64,000 bases of DNA from Thermoanaerobaculia bacterium (GTDB taxonomy: Bacteria > Acidobacteriota > Thermoanaerobaculia > UBA5066 > Gp7-AA6). Shown here piece after piece: positions 4,958-38,495 of the stretch (positions are counted from its first letter, which is position 1; each line of letters begins with the position of its first letter). The position numbers and the translations under genes are program-made. A model generated the notes under the pieces. It made no database searches. It was not told the origin of the DNA and was given only the letters and a program-made list of their open reading frames with translations. The stretch is taken from contig DATJXB010000067.1 in the NCBI GenBank assembly GCA_035500755.1, positions 36,023 to 100,022 of the forward strand. The letters run 5' to 3'.

Positions 4958-5773
4958 TCAGAGCCCCGCCAGGCCCGGCTCGATCCGCTCGAGGCCCTCG
5001 CGGACGGCCCAGAGGTCGAGCGACAGGCTCACGAGGTCGTCGACCTCCGGAATCGGCCGCGCGTCTTCCGACAAGTCGAGCGACTTGACGTAGCGGCGGC
5101 AGGTCTCGCAGGTCTCGAGGCGCACGGCCGGATGCTCGGGGGCCGAGAACGAAGGCAGCTTGACCGGGTCGTCTTCCCCGCAGGCGGGGCAGAGAATGCG
5201 GGCAAACGGCCATTCCCCGCCGCAGAGCGCGCAGGCGAGCAGGCGCCGGGCGCCCTCCATCGTCGAGCCCTCGCGCCGCGCCGAGACCCAGGGAAGTCCG
5301 CCGCAGAACGGACAGCGCCCCTGCTTGTGGGAGCGGTCGGGCGGCACCGGGAAGGAGCGCAGCGTCTCGACGTACGGACGCAGGATCGCGCGCGAGAGGT
5401 AGTCCTCGCGGGCGTCGCGGCCGCCGGCCCAGTAGACGAGCAGGCGCGTCCGGCGAGTGGCCGGAAGGTCGTCTCGCCGCGCCCGAGCCGCCGCGGCGAG
5501 ACCGTCGGGGCCGGCGTCGGCGGCGTAGCGCAGGAGCTCGGGGACGCGATCGAGGAACCGGTCGACGTCGTCGTCGAGGCGGCCGGTCAGCGGCGCGTCG
5601 GCGTGGGTGCGCTCGAGCGATTCGGCGACGGCCGCTTGAGCCCGGTACAGACCGGCCGCGAAGCGGAGCGGCTCTTCGACCGACGGGGTCTTTCCCGCCA
5701 GGATCTCCGCGCGGGCGGCGCGGCGCTCGAATGCCGACGCGAGGGCCGAGCCGCTAGGGGCGCCGCTCTTCAC
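4958..5773 (-). CDS. fdhE: Formate dehydrogenase accessory protein FdhE
   Basis: 271 aa with paired CxxC clusters (CPFCGG...CALCGGEW...CPACGE...CETCRRY) and FdhE-like length. Immediately downstream of fdnI with a 20-nt overlap. Confidence 0.85.
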   Translation of the reverse strand: MKSGAPSGSALASAFERRAARAEILAGKTPSVEEPLRFAAGLYRAQAAVAESLERTHADAPLTGRLDDDVDRFLDRVPELLRYAADAGPDGLAAAARARRDDLPATRRTRLLVYWAGGRDAREDYLSRAILRPYVETLRSFPVPPDRSHKQGRCPFCGGLPWVSARREGSTMEGARRLLACALCGGEWPFARILCPACGEDDPVKLPSFSAPEHPAVRLETCETCRRYVKSLDLSEDARPIPEVDDLVSLSLDLWAVREGLERIEPGLAGL

Positions 5774-6449
5774 CCGTGACTTTTCGATACCACGCCGGGT
5801 GGTGCAGCCGCGCCCACGCCCGCGTCACGGTGCCGCGGATCATCGACCCGAACGTCCCCGGCTCGGCGGCCGTCCCGAGGTAGACGTGGAAGACGAGGGA
5901 GACGGCGAAACAGATGAACGTGAAGTCGTGGATCAGGTACGCGAGCTGCATGAGGCCCTTCGGAAAGGACTGCGGAAACCACATCATCAGTCCCGAGAGC
6001 AGCAGCCCGACCGCCCCGAGGGAGACCGCCCAGAAATAGAGCTTCTGTCCGCCGTTGTACTTGCCGGTGCGCGGGTCGTCCTCCTCGTAGCGCATGTATC
6101 GGAACACGCGCGGGCCGACCCAGTCCTTTTCCCACGGCTCGAGCCGCATGTCCGAGATCCACTCGACGAATTGGACGAAGGAGGCGATGACGAACGCCAC
6201 TCCCGCCCAGGGATGGACGACGCGGCAGACCGAAAGGCCGCCGAAGAGGTGCGCCATCCAGCCGAACAGCGGCGTCCAGATCGGCATGCCGCTCAGCATC
6301 GAAACGACGAACGTCAGCGCCACCGCCCAGTGGACCAGACGGGAGTAGAGGCGGTGGCGAACGATCACGGGACCGACGACCACGTCTTCGCGCGTCCGCG
6401 CGACGGCGATCGCCGGATCCATCGGGGCGTGGGGAGCGGCGCTGCTCAT
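5754..6449 (-). CDS. fdnI: Formate dehydrogenase-N cytochrome b556 gamma subunit
   Basis: Start at internal Met (MSSAAPHAPMDP...) 19 nt after the fdnH stop, preceded by GGAGGGAACCG. Four TM helices with conserved His (RLVHWAVAL...HPWAG...LIHDFTF...FHVYLG) as in FdnI/FdoI. The first 73 codons of the table ORF overlap fdnH out of frame. Confidence 0.85.
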   Translation of the reverse strand: MSSAAPHAPMDPAIAVARTREDVVVGPVIVRHRLYSRLVHWAVALTFVVSMLSGMPIWTPLFGWMAHLFGGLSVCRVVHPWAGVAFVIASFVQFVEWISDMRLEPWEKDWVGPRVFRYMRYEEDDPRTGKYNGGQKLYFWAVSLGAVGLLLSGLMMWFPQSFPKGLMQLAYLIHDFTFICFAVSLVFHVYLGTAAEPGTFGSMIRGTVTRAWARLHHPAWYRKVTGEERRP

Positions 6450-6468
6450 CGGTTCCCTCCGTCGGCGT

Positions 6469-7350
6469 TCAAGCGGTCGGGCGGTTCGCGTTCGGGTCGT
6501 CCGGGGGCGGCACCTTGGGGCCGTACTTCGTGTAGTGCGCGAAGGCGCCGGCGACCGCGCCGAAGATCGCGAGAACGCCGATCGGCCGGAGCACCTTCTT
6601 CCAGAACTTGACGCCCCACGGCACGTGCGGGTCGGCCGGGAGGCCGTAGAGCCCGGGCTGGTCGCCAAACGCGAGCACGGTGACGACGGCCGTGCCGCCG
6701 ACGCCTGGCGGGTCGTAGACGGCGGCCTGTTTGAAGCCGCTCGCCTGGAGCTGGTGGACCCGGTTCTTCGCGAGCTCGAGCATGTCCTCCTTCGTCCCGA
6801 AGTGGAGGCAGCCCGTCGGGCAGGATTTGATGCACGCGGGCTCGAGGCCGACCGACACGCGGTCGACGCAGAGCGTGCACTTGGCCATCTTCCCCGTCGC
6901 CTGCGAGAAGCGCGGCACGTCGAACGGGCAGCCGGTCTCGCAGTACTTGCAGCCGATGCACTGGTCCGGGTTGACGTCCACGATGCCGTTGGCGTACTGC
7001 ACGATCGCGCCCGGCGCCGGGCACGCCGCGAGGCAGCCGGGCTCGTCGCAGTGCATGCACTGGTCCTTGCGCATCAGCCAGGCGAAGCCGCCTTCGAAGT
7101 CGTGCTCGTTGAACCGGATCAGGTTCCAGAATTCGGCGTGGAGGGTCGGCAGCGTCTGATAGCTCCCGACCTGCTGCGTGGCGACCGGGCCGAGGTCGTT
7201 CCACTCCTGACAGGCGACCTCGCAGGCTTTGCAGCCGATGCACGTCGTGGTGTCGATGTACTTGGAAACGGTGTCCGCGTGGCGGAGTCCCGAGAAGCTC
7301 CCGAGGACCGAGGCCGAGGAGCGGCGAAGGTCGAGCGCTTGTGTGGCCAT
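6469..7350 (-). CDS. fdnH: Formate dehydrogenase-N iron-sulfur beta subunit (4x[4Fe-4S], C-terminal TM anchor)
   Basis: 293 aa with four ferredoxin-type cysteine clusters (CIGCKACEVAC, CMHCDEPGCLAAC, CIGCKYCETGC, CTLC...CIKSC) and a C-terminal hydrophobic helix. Confidence 0.9.
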   Translation of the reverse strand: MATQALDLRRSSASVLGSFSGLRHADTVSKYIDTTTCIGCKACEVACQEWNDLGPVATQQVGSYQTLPTLHAEFWNLIRFNEHDFEGGFAWLMRKDQCMHCDEPGCLAACPAPGAIVQYANGIVDVNPDQCIGCKYCETGCPFDVPRFSQATGKMAKCTLCVDRVSVGLEPACIKSCPTGCLHFGTKEDMLELAKNRVHQLQASGFKQAAVYDPPGVGGTAVVTVLAFGDQPGLYGLPADPHVPWGVKFWKKVLRPIGVLAIFGAVAGAFAHYTKYGPKVPPPDDPNANRPTA

Positions 7351-7359
7351 CGCGTCCTC

Positions 7360-10300
7360 CTAGGCTTTCTCGAGCTGGACGAGGAACGTCTTGAATTCGG
7401 GCGTCCACGTGTTCGGATCCATGGCGGACGGGGTCAGGAAGTTGGCCAGCGGTCCCGTGTGCCCGCCCGTGGCGTCGTAACCCCAGTGCAGCGGGAAGCC
7501 GATGTACCAGACCTGCTTGCCGTCGACGGTGAGCGGACGCAGGCGCTTGGTGACCATGGCGACGCCCTCGATCGAGCCGCGCGCCGACGTGACCCGCGCC
7601 CGGCCGCCGTTGGTGATTCCCTTGTCCTTCGCGAGCTGCTCCGGGATCTCGATGAAGAAGCCCGGCTGGAGCTGGTTCAACCGGTCGATGTTCTTGGTCC
7701 AGTAGTGGTACATCTCGGTCAGGCGATACGTCGTGCAGATGATCGGGAACTTGTCCGCCGAGCCGTAGACGTCCTTGTCCGACTTGAACTTCTTGACGAC
7801 CGGGCTGGAGGTCACCTTCGGGTGCAGCGGGTTCGGGACGGCCGCCTCGACGGCCTCGTAGTGCTCGGGGAAGGGGCCGTCGTTCAACGGCGCGAAGAGC
7901 TTGCCGACGCCTTCCGGCAGCATGATGAAGGCGCCGAATTCTCCGGGCGGCGAGTCGGGCTTGATGTCGGGGACGTCGCCGACCCACTTCTCGCCGTTCC
8001 ACTTGATGCCGACCCGGGTCGGATCCCAGGGTTTTCCGGCCGCGTCCGCCGAGGCGCGGTTGTACATGACCCGCCGGTTCGCCGGCCAGGAGAAGGTCCA
8101 GTTGGGGTACATGCCGAGGTTCGACGGGCTGTCCACCGACACGCGGCGCTGCGTCAGGTTGCCGGCTTCCGTGAAGCAGCCCGACATGAGCCAGTTGCCG
8201 CACATCGTCGAGCCGTCGTCCTGGAGCTGCCCGAACCCGTCGAGCTGCTGGCCGGCGGTCTTGAGGACCTTCGTCTTGTCCTTGGGGTCCGGGATGTCCG
8301 CGAGGGCCTTGCCGTTCAACTCCTTCAGGCACTCCGCAAGATCCGGAGAGGTCGGGTTGGAGTAGGACCAGTCGACGTTGAGCACCGCCTCGGGGAGGGC
8401 CCCGCCCTCCTTCCGGTAGAGCTCGCGGACGGCGAGGAAGATGCGCGCCAGGATCTCCTGATCCGACTTGGCCTGGCCGGGCGGATCCACGGCCTTCCAC
8501 TTCCACTGGATCCAGCGCGCGGAGTTGGTGAAGGAGCCGTCCTTCTCGGCAAACGTCGCCGCCGGAAGCTGGAAGACCTCCGTCTGGATCTGCGCCGCCG
8601 GCGCGCCGCCGTATTCCTTGGGCGCCTGCCAGAAGTTGGCCGACTCGATCTCGTGGTTCTCGCCGACGACCAGCCACTTCAGCTTCGAGAGGGCGGCGAC
8701 CATTTTGGGCACGTTCGGGCCGATGCCGACCGGGTTCATGCCGAACGTGATCAGGCCTTCGGGGCCCGGCTCCTTGGCGCCGGCGCGGTCGGCGTTGCCG
8801 CGGTACATGTCGTCGTAGATGTACATCCACGAGTAGTTGCCGTCGGTTTTCGGCAGCCAGTCGTAGCCGAAGTCGTTTTCCTTCGTGGCCGCCTTCCCAT
8901 AGACGGCCTTCAGGAGCGAGACCATGAACTTGGGGTAGTTCTGCCAGTAGTTCATCGACGGGCCGAGGGCCTTCGGGACGTTGGCCTCGTTGTATTCCTT
9001 CAGGCTCTGCCACTGGGACGTCGGCGTCTTGACGTAGCCCGGCAGGATCTCGAAGGTGCCCGCGGTGTCGGTCGCGCCCTGGATGTTGGAGTGGCCGCGC
9101 AGGGCGTTGACGCCGCCGCCGGGCCGCCCGACGTTGCCGAGGAGCAGCTGCAGCATGGCGGCCGCCCGGATCATCTGGACGCCGACCGAGTGCTGAGTCC
9201 AGCCGAGCGCGTACATGATCGTCCCGCAGCGCTGCGCGTTGCCGGTCGAGGTCACGACCTCGGCGACCTTCAGGAACGTGTCTTTCGGCGTGCCGCAGAC
9301 CTTCTCGACGGTTTCCGGCGTGTAGCGGTCGACGTGCTGCTTCAGCAACTGGAAGATGCAGTGGGGGTCCTGCATCGTCGGGTCCGTCTTCGCAAATCCG
9401 GTCTTCGCGTCGAGCTGGTAGCTCCAGGAATCCCGCTTGTAGCTGCCGGAGGCCTCCTCGAAGCCGGAGAAGAGCCCTTCGTCGAACTTGTAGTCGGGGT
9501 TGACGAGAAGCGGGCCGCTCGTGAACAGCTTGACGTATTCCTCGTGGTAGCGGTTGTTCGCGATCGCGTAGCGGATGATCCCGAGCAGATACGCGATGTC
9601 GGTCCCCGGCCGGATCGGCGAGTAGAGATCCGCGACCGCGGCGGTCCGCGTGAAGCGCGGGTCGACGGCGACGAGCTTGGCGTTACGGGTCTTCTTCGCC
9701 TCGATCGCCCACTTGAATCCGCAGGGATGGTTCTCGGCGGGGTTGCCGCCCATGCACAGGACGACGTCGGCATTCTTGATGTCGACCCATCCGTTGGTCA
9801 TCGCCCCCCGGCCGAACGTGGCGGCCAAACTGGCCACCGTGGGGCCGTGTCAAACCCGGGCCTGGCTGTCCCGGTACGGCACCCCCAGGGCCGTGATCGT
9901 CTTCCACTGAAGCCAGTTGAATTCGGTCGTGTCGGTGCACCCGCCGATCATCGCGATGCCGGGCGTGCGGTTGACCAGCTGGCCCTTGGCGTTTTTCGCG
10001 ACGAAAGTCCTGTCGCGGGTCGTCTTGATGTGGCGGGCGATCTGGGAGATGGCGTCGTCCCAGGAGATGTCCTCCCAGTGGTCCGACCCGGGACGCCGGA
10101 CCTTGGGCGTCGTGAGACGGTCCTTGCTGTTGATGTCGTCCTTGACCGTTGCGCCCTTGGGGCAGAGCGTGCCGCGGTTGATCGGGTGGTCGGGATCGCC
10201 CTCCACGTACACGACGGATGCCGTCGCGTTCTTGGCCTTGTCGCCGAGGGTATGGATGATCATCCCGCACGAGACCGCGCAGTACGGACAGGTACTTCGC

Positions 10301-10425
10301 GTCTCGGTCGTGCGCGCGATCTTGAACTCGCGCATTTCGGCCTCGGCCCTGGAGACGTCGAACCCGAGGGCGATGGTGGTTCCGAGACCGGTGGCCTTCA
10401 AGAACCCGCGACGGGTGACCTCCAT
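7360..10425 (-). CDS. fdnG: Formate dehydrogenase-N catalytic alpha subunit; selenoprotein with in-frame UGA (Sec) at 9850-9852, TAT signal
   Basis: Table ORFs 9850-10425 (191 aa, MEVTRRGFLKATGLGTT...CPYCAVSCG...SQARV) and 7360-9837 (825 aa) are one frame. The junction reads DSQARV-TGA-HGPTVASLAATFGRGAMTNGWVDIK, matching the E. coli FdnG/FdoG RV-U-HGPTVASLAPTFGRGAMTN selenocysteine site. RR TAT motif at the N-terminus. Molybdopterin oxidoreductase motifs throughout. Confidence 0.9.
9820..9852 (-). promoter_or_regulatory. Candidate bacterial SECIS hairpin downstream of the fdnG UGA codon
   Basis: mRNA: UGA CACGGCCCCAC GGUGGCC AGUUU GGCCGCC. A 7-bp stem (one G.U) with a 5-nt loop starts 11 nt after UGA, matching E. 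coli fdhF/fdnG SECIS geometry. Confidence 0.5.
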
Positions 10426-10530
10426 GGACCCTCCTCTCCAGGGAATCCTGAAGCAAATGCCGCGCCCAGGTGAATTCCATTCCTCGCTGCCGCCGAAGTC
10501 AAGGAAAAGTCGAAAATTCGGCCGCTCGGT

Positions 10531-11949
10531 TCAGGCGGTTGGCGCCGCGGCGGGTTCACGGGCCGGCGCCTTGACCACGGTAACGGTGCAGGTCGCCTCC
10601 GCCGCCACCCGGGAGGAGACGCTGCCGAGGTAACGCCGCAGCGTCGAGCTGCCCCGGGAGCCGACCACGAGGTGGTCGACGTGGTTGGCCGCTGCGAACT
10701 CGACCAGGGCCGACCCCGGATCGGGAGCCTCGAGGACGTGATGAGTCACGCGGCCGACCCCGAGGCCCAGCGGCCTCGCCCAGTGCCGCAGCTCGACGAG
10801 GAGCTGGACTCGGACGCTGCGTCCTTGCGCGTTCAGGGTCGAATCCATCGCAATGCGAGAGGTTTTGAGGACGGTCAGGCACGCCAGGCGCGCGCCCGGC
10901 TCGGTTTCGAGGACCCGCCGTGTCGTCAGGAGGAGCGCCTCGAGCAGGGCTTCCGACCCCTGGGAAAGGTCGAGCGCGACCGCCACGAGGGGGGCCCGCG
11001 AAATCTGGCCCGCGGCCGACCTTCCGAGGTCCGGCTCCTCCCCGTGGGTGCGCAGCCGCCGCTTGAGGACCGTCAGGGCGCCGTCCCGGGCGAGGCGGCT
11101 CGAGCGGGCCGTCAGCGGAATCTCCTCGGGGTGCTGAAGATCGAAGGCGAGGTGGGCGGCCGTCTGGTAGCGCGTTCCGGGCGCCACTTCCAGGCACCGG
11201 AGGATCACTTCCTGGAGCCAGGGCGGACACTCGGGGTTGCGGGCGCGCGGCGGGACCGGGTCGCGGTAGAGACGCTGGCGGAGCCCCCGCACGCTCGTCG
11301 GGTTGCCGAAGGGCCGTTGGCCGGTGGCGAGGTAGTAGAGGACGACGCCGAGGGAGAAGAGGTCGCTGCGCGGATCGTTCCGGATCTGGGCGATCTGCTC
11401 GGGCGAGATGTACGGCCCCGTGCCGATCGGCAGCCGGAACTGCTCGGCCAGCAGGTCGGGCAGCCGGTCGTGCCGCGACAGCCCGAAGTCGATCAGGACC
11501 GCCGCGCCGCCCTCGCGGAACATGACGTTGGACGGTTTGACGTCGAGGTGGATGACGTGCTGCCCATGGAGGTCATGGAGGGCGTCGGCGATCCGGGCGC
11601 CGTAGGAGGCCACTTCTCGGGGCGGCAGCGGCGCGTCGTCGACCCGGGCGCGGAGCGACGGTCCGGCGAGGTGCTCCAGGACGATGTACGGCTGGGTCGA
11701 CCAGTCGCCGGCCGCCACGAAGCGCGGCACGTGGATCCCGGAGAGTGTCGGCAGGATCATCTGCTCGACCTCGAAGCCGACGAGGGCGGCGGGGTCGTCG
11801 CCGTCGCGGAAAGACGGAATCTTCATGACGAGCGGATCGGCGCCTTCGGGACGGCGCACCCGCCAGATCTCCGCCATGCTTCCCTGGTGGATCTTCTCCT
11901 CGAGGACGTAGCCGTCGAGGACGAGTCCGGGCCGTCGCGCCGCGGTCAC
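10531..11949 (-). CDS. Ser/Thr protein kinase (Hanks type) fused to a C-terminal universal stress protein (UspA) domain
   Basis: GTG start overlapping the phosphoesterase stop (GTGA). Kinase motifs ...GSMAEIWRV...VMKIP...HLDVKPSNVMF...DFGLS...GTGPYISPE. C-terminus ...HVDHLVVGSRGSSTLRRYLGSVSSRVAAEATCTVTVVK is UspA-like. The upstream 229 codons of the table ORF are out-of-frame overlap. Confidence 0.8.
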   Translation of the reverse strand: MTAARRPGLVLDGYVLEEKIHQGSMAEIWRVRRPEGADPLVMKIPSFRDGDDPAALVGFEVEQMILPTLSGIHVPRFVAAGDWSTQPYIVLEHLAGPSLRARVDDAPLPPREVASYGARIADALHDLHGQHVIHLDVKPSNVMFREGGAAVLIDFGLSRHDRLPDLLAEQFRLPIGTGPYISPEQIAQIRNDPRSDLFSLGVVLYYLATGQRPFGNPTSVRGLRQRLYRDPVPPRARNPECPPWLQEVILRCLEVAPGTRYQTAAHLAFDLQHPEEIPLTARSSRLARDGALTVLKRRLRTHGEEPDLGRSAAGQISRAPLVAVALDLSQGSEALLEALLLTTRRVLETEPGARLACLTVLKTSRIAMDSTLNAQGRSVRVQLLVELRHWARPLGLGVGRVTHHVLEAPDPGSALVEFAAANHVDHLVVGSRGSSTLRRYLGSVSSRVAAEATCTVTVVKAPAREPAAAPTA

Positions 11950-12713
11950 GGGACGGCCTCCAGGCGGATGTTGAAGGTCGGCGGCAGGCCGGCCTCGCGG
12001 ATCTTGCGGATCGCGGTCTCGACGTCGTACGGCACCCGGTGAAAGGTCAGGACGTCGGTCGCGTCGTCGAGGATCGCGTAGCAGGCGGCCGGGTTTCCGT
12101 CGCGCGACTGGCCGACCGATCCCGGGATCGCGAGCCACCGCCGCGGCCGGCCGAGCGGGATCGCGGTCCCGGGTGTCGGCGTGAAGGCGCCGGGACGGTC
12201 GTCGGGGCCGAGGTGGTAGAGGGCCGGCGTGTGCATGTGTCCGCAGAAGGTCAGGCGGCAGCGCGTCGCCCGCATGCTGTGCCCGGCGTCGAACGGCGAG
12301 GTCACGTACTCCCAGCGCTCCGGCGCCCAGGCGTTGGCGTGGACGTAGAGGCGGCCGTCCTCCTCGAGCGAAAGCGGCAGGCGCGCGAGGAACTGGAGCT
12401 GCGTCGGACCGAGCTGCGCGCGCGTCCACGCGATCGCGGCCCGTGCGTCGGGGTTCATGCGGGGTGAGGGTTCTTCGAGCGTGGCGTGGTCGTGGTTGCC
12501 CAGAACCGCCACGCCGCCGCGGGCGACGAGGCCGGAGACGACGTCGAGAACCGCCGCCGGATCGGCGCCGTAACCGACGAGGTCCCCCAGAAACACGCAG
12601 CGTGCGGCGCCGGCGCGGTCCGCGTGCGCGAGGCACGCGAGGAGGGCCTCCAGGTTCGCGTGGACGTCTGTCAGGAGCGCGATGCGCACGGGTCCTCCGC
12701 GGGCCGGCGCCAT
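11946..12713 (-). CDS. Metallophosphoesterase (calcineurin-like Ser/Thr phosphatase / diadenosine-tetraphosphatase family)
   Basis: 255 aa with DVHAN...GDLVGYG...GNHD...GHMH motifs. Confidence 0.8.
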   Translation of the reverse strand: MAPARGGPVRIALLTDVHANLEALLACLAHADRAGAARCVFLGDLVGYGADPAAVLDVVSGLVARGGVAVLGNHDHATLEEPSPRMNPDARAAIAWTRAQLGPTQLQFLARLPLSLEEDGRLYVHANAWAPERWEYVTSPFDAGHSMRATRCRLTFCGHMHTPALYHLGPDDRPGAFTPTPGTAIPLGRPRRWLAIPGSVGQSRDGNPAACYAILDDATDVLTFHRVPYDVETAIRKIREAGLPPTFNIRLEAVP

Positions 12714-12823
12714 GCTACCGCGCGGTGAAGGCCGGACGCGGCCGGGGTTGACGCGTTTGCATCAGCGGCGCCGGCTCCTGCAGTAGCATCCTCGGGCTGC
12801 CACAGTCCTGCGAGGAGGGCGCG

Positions 12824-14737
<1,914 letters not shown>

Positions 14738-14761
14738 CGCGGGCGGCCGCGAGGACCGCCC

Positions 14762-15604
14762 CTATTTCACCGAGCCGACCGTGAAGCCGGCGATGAACCG
14801 GTCGAGAAACAGGTTGTAGATGAAGCCGATCGGCAGGCTCGCGATCAGACACGCCGCCATCAGGGATCCCCAGTAGTAAACGTCCCCACGGACGAGGAAG
14901 ATCGGCACGCCGACCCCGATCATCTGGTTCGACTCGGGCGAGATGAACGTCAGCGCGTAGACGAATTCCTGCGTGACCAGGGTGAAGCTGAAAATGACGA
15001 CGGTCAGGATCCCCGAGACCGAGATCGGCACGACCATCTTCAGGAACGCGCCGAAGCGCGTCAGGCCGTCCACCATCGCCGCGTCCTCGAGCTCCTTCGG
15101 GATCGACTTGAAGAAGCCCATGAGGAGCCAGATCGAGAACGGGATCGTCATGCTCGGGTACACGAGCACGACCGAGAAGATCGAGTCCTGGAGCCCGAGG
15201 AGCGCGACGACGCGAGAGAGCGGAATGAAGAGGAGCGTCGGCGGGATCAGGTAGGTCAGGAAGATCGCGATCCCGAGCCGCTGCCCCCAGCGCCCGGTCA
15301 GGCGGGCCAGCGCGTAGGCCGCCGGCACGGCGATGGCGAGCGTGATCGCCACGACGATGGCGCCGACCAGCGCCGTGTTGCCGAGCCACCGGACGAAGCG
15401 AGTCTGCGTGAACAGAAATCGGATGTGCTCGAACGTGGGCGGCAGGTTGAACTTGAACGGGTTGTTCTCGACCGTATAGAGGTCGATGTTCTGCTTGAAC
15501 GACGCGATCAGCATCCAGAAGAAGGGAAACGCGAGAACGGTGGTGAAGAAGACCAGGACCCCGACGTGCAGGACCTTGCCGGCGACCTTCCGCCGCGCGC
15601 TCAC
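14762..15604 (-). CDS. Carbohydrate ABC transporter permease (MalG-like)
   Basis: GTG start (VSARRKVAGK...) overlapping the upstream permease stop (GTGA). Six TM with EAA-loop region ...PKELEDAAMVDGLTRFGAF... The upstream 171 codons of the table ORF are artefact. Confidence 0.8.
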   Translation of the reverse strand: MSARRKVAGKVLHVGVLVFFTTVLAFPFFWMLIASFKQNIDLYTVENNPFKFNLPPTFEHIRFLFTQTRFVRWLGNTALVGAIVVAITLAIAVPAAYALARLTGRWGQRLGIAIFLTYLIPPTLLFIPLSRVVALLGLQDSIFSVVLVYPSMTIPFSIWLLMGFFKSIPKELEDAAMVDGLTRFGAFLKMVVPISVSGILTVVIFSFTLVTQEFVYALTFISPESNQMIGVGVPIFLVRGDVYYWGSLMAACLIASLPIGFIYNLFLDRFIAGFTVGSVK

Positions 15605-16509
15605 ACGACCTCCGCGCGGTGCGCCACGCGCAGCATGAGATAGGCGACGAGCACGAGCACGGGCACGAGGAAGAGGGAGATCGCGGCGCCCGCGGCGAGG
15701 TCGCTCCCGGCGATCCCGGTCGCGAACGCGAGCGAGGGGAGCGTCTGGGTCGAGTCGAAGGGGCCGCCGGCCGTCAGGATGTAGACGACCGTCATGTCCG
15801 TGAAAGTGAAGATGATGCCGAAGAGGACGGCGACCGACAGGATCGGCGTCATCATCGGCAGGTTGATCTGGAACGTCGTCCGCCAGAAGCCCGCGCCGTC
15901 GATCGCGGCCGCCTCGGGGATCTCCTTGGAGATCGCGGAGCGTCCGGCCAGCATGATCACGGTCGAAAACGGGATCAGGCGCCAGCAGTGCACGAGGATC
16001 ACCGACGCCATCGCCAGGTGCGGCTCCCCGAGCCACATCGGGGCGTTGAACGGCTTGACGAGGTGGAGGGCGACGAGCACCCAGGTGATCACGCTGTAGA
16101 TCGAATCGAGGATCCACTTCCAGCCGATCGTCCCGAGCGAAACCGGCGCGACCCAGGGCAGCAGGATCAGGAACCGCACGAAGCCGCGCCCGCGGAACGG
16201 CTTCTCGAGGGCGATCGAGAGAATGTTGGAGCAGACGATCACGATCAACTGGGCGCAGAGCGTGAAGACGATCGAGTTGCGCAGCGCCTTCCGGAAGCTC
16301 GGGCTCTGGAGGATGCTGCGGAAGTTCTCGACGCCGACGAAGTGGAGGCCGGTCGACCCGATGCGGGCGTCGCTGAAGGCGTAGAGCACGGCGAGCGCGA
16401 AGGGCACGCCGATGAGCAGCACGATGTAGAGGACCGACGGCGCGAACATCGCCGTCCCGAGGACCCAGCCCGGCGCGGTCCCGGCCGCCCGGCGGCGGTC
16501 GCCGGTCAC
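15601..16509 (-). CDS. Carbohydrate ABC transporter permease (MalF-like)
   Basis: Probable GTG start (VTGDRRRAAG...MFAPSVLYIV) overlapping the ATPase stop (GTGA). EAA loop ...ISKEIPEAAAIDGAGFWRTTFQINLP. Confidence 0.75.
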   Translation of the reverse strand: MTGDRRRAAGTAPGWVLGTAMFAPSVLYIVLLIGVPFALAVLYAFSDARIGSTGLHFVGVENFRSILQSPSFRKALRNSIVFTLCAQLIVIVCSNILSIALEKPFRGRGFVRFLILLPWVAPVSLGTIGWKWILDSIYSVITWVLVALHLVKPFNAPMWLGEPHLAMASVILVHCWRLIPFSTVIMLAGRSAISKEIPEAAAIDGAGFWRTTFQINLPMMTPILSVAVLFGIIFTFTDMTVVYILTAGGPFDSTQTLPSLAFATGIAGSDLAAGAAISLFLVPVLVLVAYLMLRVAHRAEVV

Positions 16510-17594
16510 TGCCACGTGTGCGGCCGCGCGGCGGTGCGCTTGCCGGAGGCCCGGTCGTAGAACTTCAGGTGGCGCTCGGTGACGGCGAAGGCCTGCACGC
16601 TGCCGGGCTCGCAGCGCACGGTCAGGGTGGAGGACAGGCGGGAGATCACCTTCCTGCCGTGGAACGCGCCGCCTTCGATCGCGCCGTAGACGATGCGCTC
16701 GGCGCCGAGGTACTCCTCGTGGCCGACACGCAGCGAGAGGGGCACGTAGGGGCCTTCGCGATCGGCGACGCGGATCGGCTCGGGGACCGCCGCCCGGCCC
16801 GCGAGCACGGCGACCGGGAAGAAGTGCTCGGGGCGGAATCCGACCACGACGTCGTCTCTCTCGACGAGGTTCATCGGCGGCGAGCCGAGGAAGGTCGCCA
16901 CGAAGGTGTCGGCCGGATCGTCGTAGACCTCGGCGGGAGTGCCGATCTGGCGCACCTCGCCGAAGTTCATGACGACGATTCGGTCGCCCATGGCCATGGC
17001 CTCGACCTGGTCGTGCGTGACGTAGATCGTGGTCGTGCCGACGCTCGTGTGGAAACGCTCGAGCTCCTCGCGCGCGGAGGCGCGGAGCTTCGCGTCGAGA
17101 TTCGAGAGAGGCTCGTCGAGCAGGAACACGGCGGGCTCGCGGACGATGGCGCGCGCGAGCGCGACGCGCTGCCGCTCGCCGCCCGAGAGCTCGCGCGGCT
17201 TGCGGTCGAGGAGCCGGCCGATGCCGAGGAGGCCCGCGGCCCACTCGACCTTCTTCCGGTGGTCCGCCTTCGGCACGCCCTGTGCCTTCAGCGGGAACGC
17301 GATGTTCTTGTAGACCGTCAGGTGCGGATAGAGGGCATAGCTCTGGAAGACCATCGCGATCCGCCGCTCGCGCGGCGACAGGTCGTTGACGACCCTGCCG
17401 CCGATCAGAATTTCGCCAGACGTGGGCGTCTCCAGGCCCGCGATCATGCGAAGCAGCGTGGTCTTGCCGGAGCCCGAGGGCCCGAGGAAGACGAGAAACT
17501 CGCCTTCGAGCGTCGTCAGGCTGACGTCGTTGACGGCGCCGAGCTCGCCCTGTTTGAAGACCTTGGTGAGTCTCCTGGTCTCGACGATTGCCAT
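16506..17594 (-). CDS. ABC transporter ATP-binding protein (MalK/UgpC-like, with C-terminal regulatory domain)
   Basis: 362 aa: Walker A GPSGSGKTT, signature LSGGERQRVALARA, Walker B FLLDEPLSNLD, H-loop YVTHD, TOBE-like C-terminus. Confidence 0.9.
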   Translation of the reverse strand: MAIVETRRLTKVFKQGELGAVNDVSLTTLEGEFLVFLGPSGSGKTTLLRMIAGLETPTSGEILIGGRVVNDLSPRERRIAMVFQSYALYPHLTVYKNIAFPLKAQGVPKADHRKKVEWAAGLLGIGRLLDRKPRELSGGERQRVALARAIVREPAVFLLDEPLSNLDAKLRASAREELERFHTSVGTTTIYVTHDQVEAMAMGDRIVVMNFGEVRQIGTPAEVYDDPADTFVATFLGSPPMNLVERDDVVVGFRPEHFFPVAVLAGRAAVPEPIRVADREGPYVPLSLRVGHEEYLGAERIVYGAIEGGAFHGRKVISRLSSTLTVRCEPGSVQAFAVTERHLKFYDRASGKRTAARPHTWQ

Positions 17595-17705
17595 GGGGTC
17601 ATCCGCTCCATGCGCCGTTGCGGCGCCGCCGGCGGCGAAGAAACGAAGGCTCCGGCCGCGTGCCGCGACCGGAGCCTATCGAAGAACGTGTCTCGGATCC
17701 GTCTT

Positions 17706-19040
17706 CTATTTCCAGCGAGCGAAAATCCTCTTGTACTCCGCTTCCGCCGCCTTCGCGGCGTCCTCGGGGCTCTCGTCGCCCCTCGCGACCTTCGCGAACA
17801 TCGTCGGGATGACCCACGTGCTGAAGGCCTCGGAGATCCCGGCCGTCGCGTAGCCGGGGTAGCCGACGTTGGTTGCCCAGTCGAGGACGTTGCCGAGCAC
17901 TTTGTACTTGTCGGGCGGGTTGGCGCGGTCGTCCTTCGCGATGAGCGTCTGGAGGTCGGGGACCGTCGAGGGGAAGCAGGGGAAGTTGTAGAACTGGCCG
18001 GCCACGAAGCCGTCCCGGAAATGGTCGATCCAGTCGATCAGGAACTTCTGCGCGCCGTCCTTGTTTTCGGCGAAGTTCCAGATCACGTAGCAGTTCATGA
18101 CGTGCTCGGCGGCGATGCGGCGCGCCGGGCCTTTCAGCGCCGGGCTGATCATGATCTTCGAGTCGATCGGCAGCTTCTCGCGCTCGGACTGCCGCGTGAT
18201 CGAGATCGCGTTGGCGACGTAGCTGACGCGGCCGGCGAGCATGGCCTGGTTGTTCGAGGGTGGCGTCCAGGTGAAGACCTCGGGCGTCTCCGTCTGCTGG
18301 TAGAGGTCCTTCATGTACTTGAGCGCGTCGATCGTCTGCTTGGAATTGATCGTGACGTTGCCGGCCTCGTCCTGCTCGGCGCCCCCGAAGGACCACAGGA
18401 GAGCTCGCATCGCCATGGAGGTGTCGAGCTCCTGCGCGAGGCCGAGGCCGCAGGGGTGGCCCGTCGCGTCCCGGATCTTCTTCGCGCCCTTGAGCAGGTC
18501 TTCGTAAGTGTCGGGGCCGTTGGGATAGCCGGCGTCGGTCCACCAGTCCTTGTGCCAGTTGCCGGGATCCGGCGTGTACGCGTCGGAGAAGGCGTAGTAC
18601 TTCCTGGTCTTCGGATTGAACGTGGACTTGTGCGCGAGGTCGATCTTCTTGCCGTGCTTCTTCTCGACCTCGGCGTACACGTTCGTCATGTCGACCACCT
18701 GCGACTCGTAGGAGGCCGGCGGCGACAGGAACATGAAGAGGTCGTGGCCTTTCTTCGCCGAGACCTCCGAGGCGGCCCGGGCGGGCAGGTCCACGAGGTT
18801 GATGTTGTCGACGATCACCTCGGTGTCGTTCTTCTGGCCCCACTCCTTGACGTACGTGCCGTTGAACCACGTGTCCCACGCCGGGACGAAGTGGCTCCAC
18901 TGGATGATCTTCAGGGTCTTCCCGGCCGCCTTCGCCCGGTCTGGAAAGAGAAAGGCCGGCCCGCCGGCCGCGAGCGCGCCGACACCGGCGAGCTTCGTGA
19001 ACTGCCGGCGGGTCAGGCCGCGAGTGTTTTTCCTGGCCAT
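17706..19040 (-). CDS. ABC transporter extracellular solute-binding protein (carbohydrate type), TAT signal
   Basis: 444 aa: MARKNTRGLTRRQFTKLAGVGALAAGG... RBS AAGGAG. Paralogue of 2426-3778. Confidence 0.9.
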   Translation of the reverse strand: MARKNTRGLTRRQFTKLAGVGALAAGGPAFLFPDRAKAAGKTLKIIQWSHFVPAWDTWFNGTYVKEWGQKNDTEVIVDNINLVDLPARAASEVSAKKGHDLFMFLSPPASYESQVVDMTNVYAEVEKKHGKKIDLAHKSTFNPKTRKYYAFSDAYTPDPGNWHKDWWTDAGYPNGPDTYEDLLKGAKKIRDATGHPCGLGLAQELDTSMAMRALLWSFGGAEQDEAGNVTINSKQTIDALKYMKDLYQQTETPEVFTWTPPSNNQAMLAGRVSYVANAISITRQSEREKLPIDSKIMISPALKGPARRIAAEHVMNCYVIWNFAENKDGAQKFLIDWIDHFRDGFVAGQFYNFPCFPSTVPDLQTLIAKDDRANPPDKYKVLGNVLDWATNVGYPGYATAGISEAFSTWVIPTMFAKVARGDESPEDAAKAAEAEYKRIFARWK

Positions 19041-19068
19041 GGTCGACTCCTTCGCTTTCTCGCAGGCC

Positions 19069-20667
19069 TCAGATGTCGGCGGTCAGGTCGCGGTCCTTCG
19101 TCTCGCGCAGGAACAGGCTGCCGATGACGAACGACATCAGCGCGACGACGATCGGGTACCAGAGGCCGGCGTAGATGTCGCCCTTGGACGCCACCATCGC
19201 CGTCGCCAGCAGCGGCAGCATGCCGCCGAACCATCCGTTGCCGATGTGGTACGGCAGAGACATCGACGTGTAGCGGATGCGGGTGGGAAAGAGCTCGACG
19301 AGGAACGCCGCGATCGGGCCGTACACCATGGTCACGTAGATCACCAGGACGACCAGGATCAGGATGGTCATCGTCCAGTTGAGCCGTGTCTTGTCGAATT
19401 TCTCCGGGTAGTTGGTGGTTTTGAGGGCGTCCTTGTACTTGGCTTCGTCGAAGCCTTGCAACTCGATGTTGCCGATCTTCGTGACGACCGTCTGGCCGGC
19501 AACGGGGGGCAATTCCTGAAAGGACAGGCCCGCCTTGTTCAGAAAGCCGCGTGCTTTGTCGCAATCGGAGTAGACGGTCTTCGGCCCGGGGAAGATGTGG
19601 ACCTGGCAGTCCGTCGCCGCGACGCTGATCGGGGTCGAGGCCGAGTAGGCCTCGATGGCTGGGTTGACATTGTGAGTGAGAGCTTTGAAGAGGGGAATGT
19701 AGGTCAGCGCCGCGACGAGACAGCCCGTCATGATGATCCACTTCCGTCCGATCCTGTCCGAGAGGCTGCCGAAGAAGATGAAGAACGGCGTTCCAATCAC
19801 GAGCGAAGCGCCGATCAGAAGATAGGCGGTCAGATAGTCGACTTTGAGATAGAGCGTCAGGAAGAACAATGCGTAGAACTGACCCGTGTACCAGACGACG
19901 CCCTGGCCGGCCGTGGCGCCGAGGAGCGCGAGGATGACGATCTTCAGGTTGCTCCAGTGCGCGAAGCTCTCCGTGAGCGGGGCCTTCGAGCCCTTTCCCT
20001 GGGACTTCATCGCCTGGAAGATCGGCGATTCCTGGAGCTTCAACCGGATGTAGACGGAGACGGCGAGCAGGATGATCGAAACGAGAAACGGAATGCGCCA
20101 GCCCCAGCTCTTGAAATCTTCGGTCGACATCTTGCCGCGGCAAAGCCCGATGACGATCAGGGCGAGGAGCAGTCCGAGGGTCGCGGTCGTCTGGATCCAG
20201 GCCGTGTCGCGACCGCGCTTGCCGTGGGGCGCGTGCTCGGCGACGTAGGTCGCCGCGCCGCCGTACTCGCCCCCGAGAGCCAGGCCCTGGACCAGGCGCA
20301 GGATCAGGAGGATGGCCGGCGCGGTGAAGCCGATCGAGGCGTACGTGGGCAGCAAGCCGACCGCGGCGGTGGAGCTGCCCATCACGACGATGGTGATCAG
20401 GAAGGTGTACTTGCGGCCGACGAGATCGCCGATGCGCCCGAACACGAGGGCGCCGAAAGGCCGCACGAGGAATCCGGCCGCGTAGGCGACGAATGACGCG
20501 AGCAGGGCCGCCGTCGCATTCTCCGGCGGAAAGAAGAGCGCGGCGAAAAAGGGAGCCAGGGTCGCGTAGAGGTAGAAGTCGTACCACTCGAAGACCGTTC
20601 CCAGGGACGAAGCGAAGATGACCCGCTTGGCCTCGGGCGCCAGGTTCTGCTCCGCGGCGGTCGCCAT
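19069..20667 (-). CDS. MFS transporter, metabolite:H+ symporter (MHS; ProP/KgtP/ShiA-like) family with a large central loop
   Basis: 532 aa; RBS GAGGAGG. N-terminal motifs ...FEWYDFYLY...GRIGDLVGRK...GGEYGGAATYVAEHAPHGKRG are hallmark MHS-family sequences. Confidence 0.85.
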   Translation of the reverse strand: MATAAEQNLAPEAKRVIFASSLGTVFEWYDFYLYATLAPFFAALFFPPENATAALLASFVAYAAGFLVRPFGALVFGRIGDLVGRKYTFLITIVVMGSSTAAVGLLPTYASIGFTAPAILLILRLVQGLALGGEYGGAATYVAEHAPHGKRGRDTAWIQTTATLGLLLALIVIGLCRGKMSTEDFKSWGWRIPFLVSIILLAVSVYIRLKLQESPIFQAMKSQGKGSKAPLTESFAHWSNLKIVILALLGATAGQGVVWYTGQFYALFFLTLYLKVDYLTAYLLIGASLVIGTPFFIFFGSLSDRIGRKWIIMTGCLVAALTYIPLFKALTHNVNPAIEAYSASTPISVAATDCQVHIFPGPKTVYSDCDKARGFLNKAGLSFQELPPVAGQTVVTKIGNIELQGFDEAKYKDALKTTNYPEKFDKTRLNWTMTILILVVLVIYVTMVYGPIAAFLVELFPTRIRYTSMSLPYHIGNGWFGGMLPLLATAMVASKGDIYAGLWYPIVVALMSFVIGSLFLRETKDRDLTADI

Positions 20668-21050
20668 TGGCTCCTCCTCAGTCAGGCCGCCGGACAGGGT
20701 CCGGCGGCAAGATAAACGAGCGGACAGAAATGCCTGGCCGCCGTGGAACGAAACGGATTCGGAAGGGGAGGCGACGCGCGCCGGCTGACTCCGCGGTCAC
20801 TCGCGGGCGCGATGCTTCGTTTGAGCGCGTCGACGAGTAGCCTGAAGCCATTGCTCACGGCACCTCGGATTGCGGTGAAGTCTTTTGGAAGGCCTCCCCG
20901 AAGTCAAGCGATTGTCCCGCGGTCACGGGCGAGGCCTCGGCGCGTCGCGGCGGCTCGCGGGTGTTCGCGGAGAGCTTGCCGCTTCGGGTGGAGGAGTTAT
21001 ATTGCGGCGGTTCCCGGCGTGGCGGGAACGACAGCCGAAAGGAATCGCGT

Positions 21051-23021
21051 ATGGCCGACGCCAATGACCGGATCCTCGAGGCCCTCCTGCAAGAGAAGCG
21101 CCAGTTCGCGCCTCCCAGGGATTTCGCGAAGAAAGCCAACGTTTCGAGCCCGGCCGTGTACCGCAAGGCCGACCGCGCGTTCGCGAAATTCTGGGAAGGC
21201 TTCGCGAAAGAGCTCGACTGGTACAAGCCCTGGAAGAAGGTGCTCGACTGGAAGCCGCCGAAGGCGAAGTGGTTCGTCGGCGGCAAGCTGAACGTCTCGG
21301 TCAACTGCGTCGACCGGCACCTGAACGGTCCGCGCAAGAACAAGGCCGCTCTCGTCTGGGAAGGCGAGCCGGGCGACCAGCGGACCTTGACCTACCGCGA
21401 TCTTTACCGGGAGGTCGGCAAGTTCGGGAACGCACTGCGTAAACTCGGTGTGAAGAAGGGCGACCGGGTCACGCTCTATCTGCCGATGATCCCGGAGCTG
21501 CCGATCGCGATGCTCGCCTGCGCCCGCATCGGCGCGATCCATTCGGTGGTCTTCGGCGGCTTCTCGGCCGAGTCGCTCCGGGACCGGATCAACGACCAGG
21601 GCGCGAAAGTCCTCGTCACCGCCGACGGCGGCTGGCGGCGCGGCAACGTCGTCCCCCTGAAGCAGATCGCCGACGAGGCGCTCCAGAACACGCCGTCGAT
21701 CGAAGCGGTCGTCGTCGTGCGCCGCACCGGGACGCCGATCCAGTTCAACGAGGGCCGCGAGCACTGGTGGCACCGTCTGATGGAGGGCTCTCCGATCCCG
21801 TGCAAGCCCGAGAAGATGGACGCCGAGGATCCGCTCTACATCCTCTACACGTCCGGCACGACGGGGAAGCCCAAGGGGATCCTCCACACGAGCGGCGGCT
21901 ATCTGGTCGGCACGTACGCGACGTCGAAGTGGATCTTCGACTTGAAAGACGACGACGTCTACTGGTGCACGGCGGACATCGGCTGGGTCACCGGCCACTC
22001 GTACGTGGTCTACGGGCCTCTGGCCAACGGCGCGACGTGTCTCATCTACGAGGGCTCGCCCGACACGCCGGCGCGCGACCGGTTCTGGGATCTCATCGAG
22101 CGGCACGGCGTCACGATCCTGTACACGGCGCCGACGGCGATCCGCGCCTTCATGAAGTGGGGCACCGAGTGGCCGGCGAAGCACGACCTTTCGTCGCTGC
22201 GGCTGCTCGGCTCGGTCGGCGAGCCGATCAACCCCGAGGCCTGGATCTGGTACCAGAAGTACATCGGCGGCGGGAAGTGCCCGGTCGTCGACACGTGGTG
22301 GCAGACGGAGACCGGGATGATCCTGATCTCGCCGCTGCCCGGGATCACGAAGACGAAGCCGGGATCGGCCACGCGCGCGTTCCCGGGCATCGAGGCGAAG
22401 ATCCTCGACCTCGCCGGCAAGGAAGTCAAAGTCGGCGGCGGCTACCTCGCGATCACGCGTCCGTGGCCCGCGATGCTGCGCACGATCTGGGGTGACGACG
22501 AACGCTACGTCAAGACCTACTGGTCGAAGTGGGGCAAGGACGTCTACTTCCCGGGCGACGGGGCCAAACGAGACGCCGACGGCTACTTCTGGCTCCTCGG
22601 CCGCGTCGACGACGTGATGAACGTCGCGGGGCACCGGATCGGCACGATGGAGGTGGAGTCGGCGCTCGTCGACCATCCGTCGGTCGCCGAGGCGGCGGTG
22701 GTCGGCGTGTCCGACGAGATCAAGGGCACCGCGATCGCCGCCTTCGTCATCCTCAAGGAGCGCGACAAGACCGCGGCGGCGCACGCCGACAAGGGCCTCC
22801 ACGACACCGTCCGAAATCACGTTGGGAAGAAGATCGGCGCCATCGCCAAGCCCGACCGCCTCTTCTTCGTCTCGGACCTGCCGAAGACCCGGTCCGGCAA
22901 GATCATGCGGCGGCTCCTGCGGGACATCGCCGAGGGCCGCGTCCTCGGCGACACGACGACCCTCGCCGACGCCAACGTCGTCGCCGCGCTCAAGAGCCAG
23001 TACGAGGAGAAAGAGGGATAG
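21051..23021 (+). CDS. acs: Acetyl-CoA synthetase (AMP-forming)
   Basis: In-frame ATG at 21051 ([22 protein letters not shown]...) within table ORF 20961-23021. Full-length match to the Acs pattern (...TYRDLYREV..., [33 protein letters not shown]). Confidence 0.9.
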
Positions 23022-26529: not shown

Positions 26530-27657
26530 TCACGAGTTCAACCCCTGGCGCAGCTCCCGGGCGAGGATTTCGACCCCCGACCGGGTTCCGCCCGTGAGCT
26601 TTTCCTTCCAGATGGTCTCGGTCTCGAACCGGCGGTCGCCGATCGACTCCGCCCACGGGCGCAGGGCGGCGTCGAGCTCGCCCGCCGACCAGACGTCCCC
26701 GCCGCGCTTGCGGACCATCGCGATCACGTAGGGCACGATCCGGATGAAGGCCCGCAGCGAGGTCGAGCTCTTGATCGAGTACTTGCGGCCGGCGAAGGCG
26801 GCGGGGAAGGCGCGGGCCGCCGCCTTGAAGTAGTTCAGGAAGAAGCGCCGTGAGTTCTCGCGGAACTCCCGGGCGATCCGGCCTCCGGCGGTGTCGATCG
26901 CCGCGAACACGTCGCGCAGCTCGTCGGCCAGCGAGGCCTGGGTCACCGAGCCCTTGCCGATCCCCAGCACCTTGATCGAGCCCTTCAGGGGCGAGCCCTC
27001 GTCCTCGTTCAGGGTCCGGATGACGTCGTGGGCGGCGGCCAGGTTGTCGTCGCGATAGAGCCGGCGGCCCGCCAGCGAGATCAGGTGCGACGGGTTCAGT
27101 TTCGTGTGCTTGCTGTTGATCGTCACGAAGAGCTCGACGACCTGGTCGGCCGTCAGGCTGTCGAAGACGACGGCGGGGACCTGGAAGTCCTTCAGGCTGT
27201 GCTTCTCCGCGAGCTGGTGCAGCGCGAGAAGCCGGTGCTGGCCGTCCAGGGCGCGGAGGATCCCGGACTCCTCGGGCAGCTTCAGCGACCCGGCGTCGGA
27301 CCGTCCGCTCGACGGGGAAAACTCCAGGCGCTTCTCCGACACGAGGAGAACGCTTCCCGGAATCGCGGGCAGCGTGCCGGAGTCGGCGCACTGCAGGTAA
27401 TAAGCGACGAGCTCGTCGATCTTCTTCTTGATGATGGGGCGCTGGAAGGCCTGCTCCGAGGCCGAGATCTTCCGTTCCAGGAACTCCCAGTTCACCCGTC
27501 CCGCCGCGACCTTCGCGTGGCCCCGCGTCGTCTGGCTGCCCGGCCCGAAGGAGAGGACCTCGAAACCCACCAGCGACTGGAGGTCCTCTCCCGACAGGAG
27601 AGCCTCGTAGAAGCGCACGCCGAACTGATTCAGGCGGAGCGAGGGAACCGAGATCAT
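26530..27657 (-). CDS. DGQHR-domain protein (DndB-like, ParB/Srx-fold)
   Basis: ATG with GGAGG RBS (MISVPSLRLNQFGVRFY...). Signature ...LRALDGQHRLLAL... plus ...FVTINSKHTKL... The upstream 172 codons of the table ORF are not coding. Confidence 0.75.
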   Translation of the reverse strand: MISVPSLRLNQFGVRFYEALLSGEDLQSLVGFEVLSFGPGSQTTRGHAKVAAGRVNWEFLERKISASEQAFQRPIIKKKIDELVAYYLQCADSGTLPAIPGSVLLVSEKRLEFSPSSGRSDAGSLKLPEESGILRALDGQHRLLALHQLAEKHSLKDFQVPAVVFDSLTADQVVELFVTINSKHTKLNPSHLISLAGRRLYRDDNLAAAHDVIRTLNEDEGSPLKGSIKVLGIGKGSVTQASLADELRDVFAAIDTAGGRIAREFRENSRRFFLNYFKAAARAFPAAFAGRKYSIKSSTSLRAFIRIVPYVIAMVRKRGGDVWSAGELDAALRPWAESIGDRRFETETIWKEKLTGGTRSGVEILARELRQGLNS

Positions 27658-27806
27658 GTCCACCTCCTGGCCCGGATACCGCAGCGTCCTCCGGAAGGGC
27701 TCGCGAGCCGGACTCCGGAGCGGGGAAAGGGTATACCGGGCGCCCGTCCGTTGAACCCATGAGATTGGGGCCGAAAACGGGCCCGTCGGGTCCGATCCGG
27801 AGGGAC

Positions 27807-28148
27807 TCAGGGCGGGGACACGGACTTCCAGTCTTCGCCGGCCATCATCTGCCCGTGAATCTGGCTGGCCCCGATCAGGATGCCCTTGAGCTCGGCCGTG
27901 AGGATCGCGGCGAGCTCGGGAAGGGCCTCGGGCCGGGCGACCGGAACCGAGCACTCGACGGTCGACTGGCCGAGGGACGCGAAGAAAGGAGACGGCCGGC
28001 GCGTCCAATCGGAGTCGCTGCGCCGGTGCTTGGTCATCAGGAACGCCGCCAGCCGCCGCTCGTCCCAGGGTTCCGACATCATCCAGCAGAAGTTCGCGCG
28101 GAGCGCTTTCTGCTCGACGGTGGGCGTGTCGCTGGCAATCGAGATCGA
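27807..28148 (-). CDS. Hypothetical protein (about 113 aa), no recognisable domain
   Basis: Strong GC3 bias in this frame (MSISIASDTPTVEQKALRANFCWMMSEPWDERRLAAFL...). Sits 150 nt upstream of the DGQHR gene. Confidence 0.4.
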   Translation of the reverse strand, partial: SISIASDTPTVEQKALRANFCWMMSEPWDERRLAAFLMTKHRRSDSDWTRRPSPFFASLGQSTVECSVPVARPEALPELAAILTAELKGILIGASQIHGQMMAGEDWKSVSPP

Positions 28149-28193
28149 CATGTCCCGCCTCAAACGATAGCATTCCCGCGTTCGACCAACACC

Positions 28194-29669: not shown

Positions 29670-29673
<4 letters not shown>
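28969..29673 (+). CDS. Soluble sensor histidine kinase (HisKA + HATPase_c, essentially no sensor domain)
   Basis: 234 aa: H-box VLVHDVKNVSFRL; ATP-lid motifs ...ENAAEAAGPDGRVLVRT...VIDNGSGM...GVGLGLA. Confidence 0.8.
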
Positions 29674-31040
<1,367 letters not shown>

Positions 31041-37825: not shown

Positions 37826-38087
37826 CCCTCGCCCGGGGGCGGCATCGAATCTCCGGCGGGATGAGATCCGGGACGTCCGGTTTCTCGTATTCGTGTCTGG
37901 AGGTCCTCGAAGGCCGCATGAATCTTGACGTCGCGGCGGGGAGGCGGAGGTAAGATTCGGCGCCAATGGCGCTCCCCGCGGGAGGAGCGCGAGGCAAACC
38001 GGTCGATCGCAGGCGTAGCTCGGCACGGCCATGTCGGCTGGACCGAATTCGATGACGCCCCGTCGGGGCAAGAAAAGGAGACTGGGG

Positions 38088-38495
38088 ATGAAGAAGGGTG
38101 ACCTGACGACGAAGGCGATCGGGTTGGCGATCGCCGGCGTGCTCGCGGGCTCGGGCCTGGCGAGCGCGATTCCTGCCAAGAACGCGAGCGCGAAGACGAC
38201 CGCCGGCGACGAGAAGGCCAAGGACACGAAGGCCGCGTCGGACAAGCACGTCTGCAAGGGCCAGAACTCCTGCAAGGGCAAGGGCGGCTGCAAGAGCGGC
38301 GACGCCGGCTGCGCGGGCAAGAATTCCTGCAAGGGCAAGGGTGGCTGCGCCTCGGCCGACATGAAGCACTCCTGCAAGGGCATGAACTCCTGCAAGGGTC
38401 ACGGCGGCTGCAAGACGGGCGACGGCGGCTGCGCGGGCAAGAACTCCTGCAAGGGCAAGGGCGGCTGCGCGGTCCCGGTCAAGAAGGCGGCGTAA
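38088..38495 (+). CDS. Bufferin-like RiPP precursor (BUF_6/12Cys type): Sec signal peptide + 12-Cys core of four CKGxNSCKGKGGC-type repeats
   Basis: ATG at 38088 with RBS AAAAGGAG: MKKGDLTTKAIGLAIAGVLAGSGLASAIPAKNASA... then ...HVCKGQNSCKGKGGCKSGDAGCAGKNSCKGKGGCASADMKHSCKGMNSCKGHGGCKTGDGGCAGKNSCKGKGGCAVPVKKAA. Lower GC than flanks. Immediately upstream of the MNIO + DUF2063 genes. Confidence 0.75.
   Translation: MKKGDLTTKAIGLAIAGVLAGSGLASAIPAKNASAKTTAGDEKAKDTKAASDKHVCKGQNSCKGKGGCKSGDAGCAGKNSCKGKGGCASADMKHSCKGMNSCKGHGGCKTGDGGCAGKNSCKGKGGCAVPVKKAA

Follow-up and report, generated by a model that had tools for sequence, protein, structure and literature searches.

In the Escherichia coli system, SelB-GTP in complex with Sec-tRNA(Sec) binds the loop of the mRNA hairpin known as the SECIS element and competes with release factor 2 (RF2) at the UGA. 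A minimal SECIS element in this organism consists of an apical stem-loop that begins 11 nt after the UGA and whose loop carries a conserved G-U. The selenocysteine-containing formate dehydrogenases of Desulfovibrio are soluble enzymes of two subunits and do not have a cytochrome b subunit. Among bacterial selenoproteins, the formate dehydrogenase subunit FdhA is the most widespread, with 67 of 75 Sec-using genomes containing it, and selenoproteins also occur in some Acidobacteria (PMC1794560).

The stretch of DNA analyzed here, referred to as the window, is 64,000 nucleotides (64 kb) long. Unlike E. coli, its host is a 70% GC Acidobacteriota-like organism represented by a metagenome-assembled genome (MAG). 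On the minus strand of the window we find a gene that, with a probability of roughly 0.93, codes for the selenocysteine-containing catalytic subunit of a periplasmic, membrane-bound enzyme of the formate dehydrogenase-N type, in which a UGA codon is recoded. Translation reveals a single frame running from 10425 to 7360 that comprises 1021 codons and has the TGA at 9852-9850 as its sole internal stop. Around this stop the translated sequence is DSQARV*HGPTVASLAATFGRG. The upstream part is an ORF of 191 aa (9850..10425, minus strand) terminated by the TGA, and the downstream part is an ORF of 825 aa (7360..9837, minus strand) in the same frame. The original prediction that the TGA is the only break between these two ORFs is confirmed by the translation. 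Its coordinates, 9820-9852, were exact and extend from the UGA through the last nucleotide of the hairpin; the strand, which was left unstated, is the minus strand.

When the internal stop was replaced, the merged protein scored 1352.6 bits with the NCBIfam family TIGR01553, whose cut-off is 814.2. This match crosses the TGA in one stretch, from residue 3 to residue 1020 of the protein and from position 2 to position 1009 of the 1009 in the profile. A search of the Protein Data Bank with the first 322 residues gave E. coli FdnG (1KQF_A) as the top match (E = 2.9e-114), and in a global alignment the two proteins are 52.5% identical over 1005 aligned positions. Codon 192, the TGA, aligns with residue 196 of 1KQF_A, which is a selenocysteine. 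The annotated E. coli fdnG, a single CDS in RefSeq, likewise has an in-frame TGA at codon 196 that is aligned with the TGA of the window. The TGA had been assigned to the conserved selenocysteine site of FdnG, and an alignment around U196 had been suggested; both the structure and the annotated gene place codon 192 on U196, as expected.

The residues around the active site are also retained. By alignment, U192, H193, and R443 correspond to U196, H197, and R446 of E. coli, and the 4Fe-4S cysteines C46, C49, C53, and C88 correspond to C50, C53, C57, and C92. The N terminus, MEVTRRGFLKATGLG, contains a T-R-R-x-F-L-K motif as read from the translation, which is consistent with a twin-arginine signal peptide, and it aligns with MDVSRRQFFK of E. 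coli FdnG. The window protein and E. coli FdnG, which has FdoG as a paralogue, are thus alike in their Tat-type N terminus, Fe-S cysteines, Sec-His pair, and the arginine at E. coli position 446. The activity predicted for members of TIGR01553 is the oxidation of formate with a Mo-bis-MGD cofactor. The periplasmic Sec-containing W/Mo formate dehydrogenases of Desulfovibrio (PDB 6SDR and 1H0H) belong to the same family, and their selenocysteine is aligned within an R-[VI]-U-H motif. Matched to the N-terminal 322 residues with E = 2e-91, they are more distant than E. coli FdnG, and in contrast to these enzymes, which are without a cytochrome b subunit, the window contains fdnI.

The gene is part of the operon fdnG-fdnH-fdnI-fdhE in an uncultured bacterium of the Acidobacteriota (Thermoanaerobaculia-like). 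Directly behind fdnG come fdnH and fdnI, and the last gene is only fdhE-like by its score. The positions of the features are listed in the table. The order fdnG-fdnH-fdnI is identical in E. coli. In the E. coli locus that was compared, no fdhE-like gene is present after fdnI, whereas such a gene directly follows fdnI in the window. The start that gives fdnI a length of 231 aa is the one called on L001, an ENA metagenome contig from an independent assembly on which the fdnG gene is 100% identical to that of the window and the flanks are ~98.6% identical. The fdhE-like gene on L001 contains the Pfam domains FdhE_C and FdhE_central.

Table. Features of the fdn locus in the 64-kb window
Feature	Position	Strand	Remarks
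fdnG, formate dehydrogenase-N alpha subunit	7360..10425	-	One CDS, 1021 codons plus TAG stop, UGA read through at codon 192
Purine-rich, putative ribosome-binding-site-like sequence GGAGAGGAGGG	10429..10439	-	Upstream of the ATG
Twin-arginine (Tat) signal peptide region, MEVTRRGFLKATGL...	10336..10425	-	Approximate extent; TRRGFLK motif from translation; cleavage site putative
UGA selenocysteine codon, codon 192	9850..9852	-	E. coli FdnG U196 by alignment
SECIS element, Rfam RF01989 SECIS_3, inside coding sequence	9797..9855	-	68.7 bits, gathering score 63
Apical SECIS hairpin GGUGGCC(A)-GUU-(U)GGCCGCC	9820..9838	-	Begins 11 nt after UGA; loop G, U at 9830, 9829
fdnH, formate dehydrogenase beta (Fe-S) subunit	6469..7350	-	TIGR01582 369.8 bits, cut-off 334.7
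fdnI, formate dehydrogenase gamma (cytochrome b) subunit	5754..6449	-	TIGR01583 159.9 bits, cut-off 115.85
fdhE-like accessory gene	4958..5773	-	TIGR01562 84.3 bits, below cut-off 187.65; C-terminal half only

For comparison with other organisms, 80 related loci were obtained from one scan of GTDB species representatives. The nearest relatives are Thermoanaerobaculia/Acidobacteriota MAGs with 87-92% amino-acid identity, followed by Myxococcota and then by Terriglobia, Planctomycetota, Nitrospirota, and Proteobacteria. At the aligned codon, TGA is present in every one of the 80. The original prediction had named related strains with a cysteine codon (TGC) as evidence that would speak against recoding; a cysteine codon at the selenocysteine position was sought in the 80 loci and found in none.

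This conservation bears on the possibility that the TGA simply ends translation, leaving the 825-aa part either dead or separately translated from the GTG at 9837. Gene callers do report the gene as two pieces, of 191 and 825 aa. It had been foreseen that automated pipelines would split the gene in this way, and the automatic gene calls on L001 contain exactly these fragments; the fdnG of E. coli is given by NCBI as a single read-through CDS. However, the TGA is situated exactly at the position of Sec196, it is retained in the 80 orthologues across phyla, and a SECIS_3 element is present. A split would also cost the gene its catalytic residue. Crude pN/pS values calculated against seven relatives are 0.14-0.33 for the part before the TGA and 0.19-0.37 for the part after it, so that purifying selection is similar on either side. 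Together with the full-length match to TIGR01553, these observations exclude a pseudogene, as had been claimed, and an interrupted gene is extremely improbable.

Almost no weight can be given either to a sequencing or assembly error at this position or to a reassignment of UGA in the genetic code, for which nothing speaks except that a stop lies in frame. The TGA is found in all relatives as well as in the independent assembly L001, where the gene is the same to the last nucleotide. Furthermore, TGA is the normal stop of 14 of the 21 confident genes in the window, which indicates that UGA is an ordinary stop here and that the standard genetic code is used. Pseudogene, split gene, sequencing error, and code reassignment were accordingly rejected on the TGA in 80 of 80 loci, the pN/pS values, the L001 copy, and the use of TGA as a stop.

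A 1312-aa ORF on the plus strand (6535-10473) runs antisense across all of fdnG, and other long overlapping ORFs are present too. Since the window has 70% GC, these long ORFs are read as artefacts of composition and not as genes. In this window, the length of an ORF is by itself no evidence for a gene.

The recoding signal was examined at the RNA level. The SECIS_3 model is matched over positions 1-59 of 59 with E = 5.5e-14 for the whole window, and the match begins 3 nt before the UGA. No other Rfam family reaches its gathering threshold anywhere in the 64 kb. The model represents the bacterial selenocysteine insertion sequence of FdnG-type genes, and at six of its base-paired positions the window sequence has a non-canonical pair. 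The hairpin GGUGGCC-AGUUU-GGCCGCC at 9838-9820, which had been described as lying 11 nt downstream of the UGA, is present in the sequence exactly as given and constitutes the apical stem of the SECIS_3 model; the spacer of 11 nt between the TGA and the hairpin is CACGGCCCCAC. RNAfold adds one A-U pair, resulting in a stem of 8 bp with a GUU loop and a folding energy of -14.9 kcal/mol. The proposed bacterial SECIS placement agrees both with the distance of 11 nt and with the match to RF01989 above its gathering score.

Folding of the region downstream of the UGA had also been proposed, and here the outcome is divided. The hairpin is predicted, but when all 66 nt downstream of the UGA are folded, dinucleotide shuffles are just as stable (z = -0.29); this control disregards the coding constraint. 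A second control was made in which the peptide was kept fixed and synonymous codons were resampled from the codon usage of the window. The 5000 synonymous recodings had a mean of -9.6 kcal/mol, and 99.5% of them were less stable than the apical hairpin at -14.9 kcal/mol. The loop codons are rare in the confident genes of the window, where AGT accounts for 0.8% of Ser codons and TTG for 4.2% of Leu codons, with a GC3 of ~94%.

The SECIS region is well preserved among the relatives. The 68 distinct sequences of 59 nt can be aligned without gaps, and the loop G26 and U27 (T27) are invariant across the alignment. A hairpin is predicted in 68 of 68 sequences, and in 64 of them it begins 11 nt after the UGA. 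Compensatory changes are observed in the apical stem: pair 21-33 is GC in 22 sequences and CG in 20, and pair 22-32 is UG in 43 and GC in 25. The covariation score of the apical helix is 0.185 compared with 0.050 for shuffled alignments, with none of 500 shuffles as high, a result to be read with the small number of independent events and the different pairing registers of the lineages in mind. The amino-acid changes A->S and A->G (VASLA to VSSLG) carry compensatory changes in the stem. Because the stem changes are carried by amino-acid replacements, the protein accommodates the RNA structure. Support for the lower helix of the Rfam model is poor in the relatives, where 68.8% of cells are paired.

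An Rfam scan was performed on seven of the loci. The SECIS_3 threshold is reached by L010, L014, L055, and L080, and the scores of L002, which is the closest named relative, and of L025 and L027, both Terriglobia-type variants, are below the gathering score. Although they retain the UGA, L025 and L027 would be missed by Rfam-based annotation. In the Terriglobia/Bryobacterales variants (L025, L027, and others), alignment columns 18-36 read GGUCUCC/GGUCUCA ... GGGGCC/GGGACC, and their pairing register is unlike that of the window and that of E. coli.

The SECIS element of E. coli fdnG has its hairpin 11 nt after the UGA as well, and 44 of the 59 SECIS nucleotides are identical to those of the window. 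The E. coli hairpin (GG-U-AGCAA GUC UUGCU CC) contains a bulged U and has a folding energy of -6.0 kcal/mol, whereas that of the window is predicted to have a continuous stem of 8 bp. The bulged U in the upper stem of E. coli fdhF and fdnG is absent from the predicted window fold, where this U pairs with G34. The U is able to pair, and the stem is continuous, because the next codon is GCC (Ala) in place of CCA (Pro) in E. coli. The same replacement is found in the Acidobacteriota/Myxococcota relatives. The bulged U characterizes the E. coli elements, and membership in the Rfam family does not require it. The hairpin without a bulge is a minor variant and no new kind of element, and it probably reflects lineage-specific co-evolution of SelB and SECIS.

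The proposed mechanism follows the E. coli system. The in-frame UGA at codon 192 would be recoded as selenocysteine, with the SECIS hairpin inside the coding sequence as the signal and its apical stem-loop placed from 11 nt past the UGA. By analogy, SelB-GTP carrying Sec-tRNA(Sec) is predicted to bind the apical loop of the SECIS as the ribosome nears, and SelB would then deliver the Sec-tRNA(Sec) to the UGA in competition with RF2. The inserted selenocysteine would serve as the molybdenum ligand of the active site. We infer that selenocysteine is the residue actually inserted at codon 192.

Such a mechanism implies a set of decoding genes, and these had been expected in the organism. In the 64-kb window, ARAGORN identified no tRNAs and Rfam no tRNA-Sec. 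SelA, SelB, and SelD are absent among ~40 ORFs of the window that were scanned for NCBIfam and Pfam families, and tblastn with the SelA and SelB proteins of L055 gave no match in the 64 kb. Among the 80 relatives, only L055 and L014 have selA and selB within 10 kb of fdnG; no sel genes are found within this distance in the other 78 relatives or in the window. The missing sel genes are therefore uninformative. Judging from the conservation of the UGA and the SECIS element, selA, selB, selC, and selD are likely to be present elsewhere in the genome of this organism.

Two of the related loci show how such genes can be arranged. L055, a Rhizobacter MAG, contains a compact fdnGHI-fdhE-selA-selB-tRNA-Sec cluster at 10001-19275, and it is the only relative with a tRNA-Sec in its flanks. 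In L014, a Polyangia MAG, selA and selB adjoin fdnG (6166-9260).

Alternatively, the UGA could be decoded as Cys (or Ser) by an opal suppressor, either a selC*-type tRNA-Cys(UCA) or an acidobacterial allo-tRNA. Both kinds of tRNA exist; allo-tRNAs are common among Acidobacteria, and selC* tRNA-Cys is found in delta-proteobacteria as well as in other anaerobes (PMC5389517). The lack of a tRNA-Sec and of sel genes in the 64-kb window would fit this reading. Against it, the conserved SECIS with its invariant loop G-U is the canonical signal of the SelB pathway, no suppressor tRNA is indicated in the window, and FdhA with selenocysteine is by far the commonest case (PMC1794560). Suppressor decoding is thus very unlikely. 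It is also very improbable that the bulge-less FdnG SECIS of this Acidobacteriota/Myxococcota lineage is read by a divergent SelB, or that the UGA is decoded as Cys by a tRNA-Sec-like suppressor.

Insertion of selenocysteine at the UGA of fdnG is an already known, textbook case of recoding, and both the protein and the RNA signal match curated families. The finding adds no new biology. Its main value lies in annotation, where a single selenoprotein of 1021 residues should replace the separate 191-aa and 825-aa fragments. It also marks the organism as a probable user of selenium with respiratory formate oxidation.

Several other genes were observed in the window. Two paralogues of acetate-CoA ligase, at 12824-14737 (+) and 20961-23021 (+), match NF001208 with 703 and 1024.5 bits and were noted within 8 kb upstream of the fdn operon. 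The gene calls on L001 place a Ser/Thr kinase-Usp gene and a metallophosphatase between fdnG and the first acetate-CoA ligase. An ORF at 26530-28173 (-) contains a DndB-like (DNA-sulfur modification-associated) domain, PF14072, with 53.5 bits. At 29670-31040 (+) there is a sigma-54-dependent response regulator; it matches the PEP-CTERM-box regulator family TIGR02915 best, at 439.4 bits, below the cut-off of 502.6. Finally, a gene of the MbnB/TglH/ChrH family (PF05114, 360.9 bits) is directly followed by a DUF2063 gene (PF09836) at 38556-40278 (+). The pairing of PF05114 and PF09836 is typical of loci for RiPP-type peptide modification, and candidate small ORFs are situated upstream at ~38031-38495.
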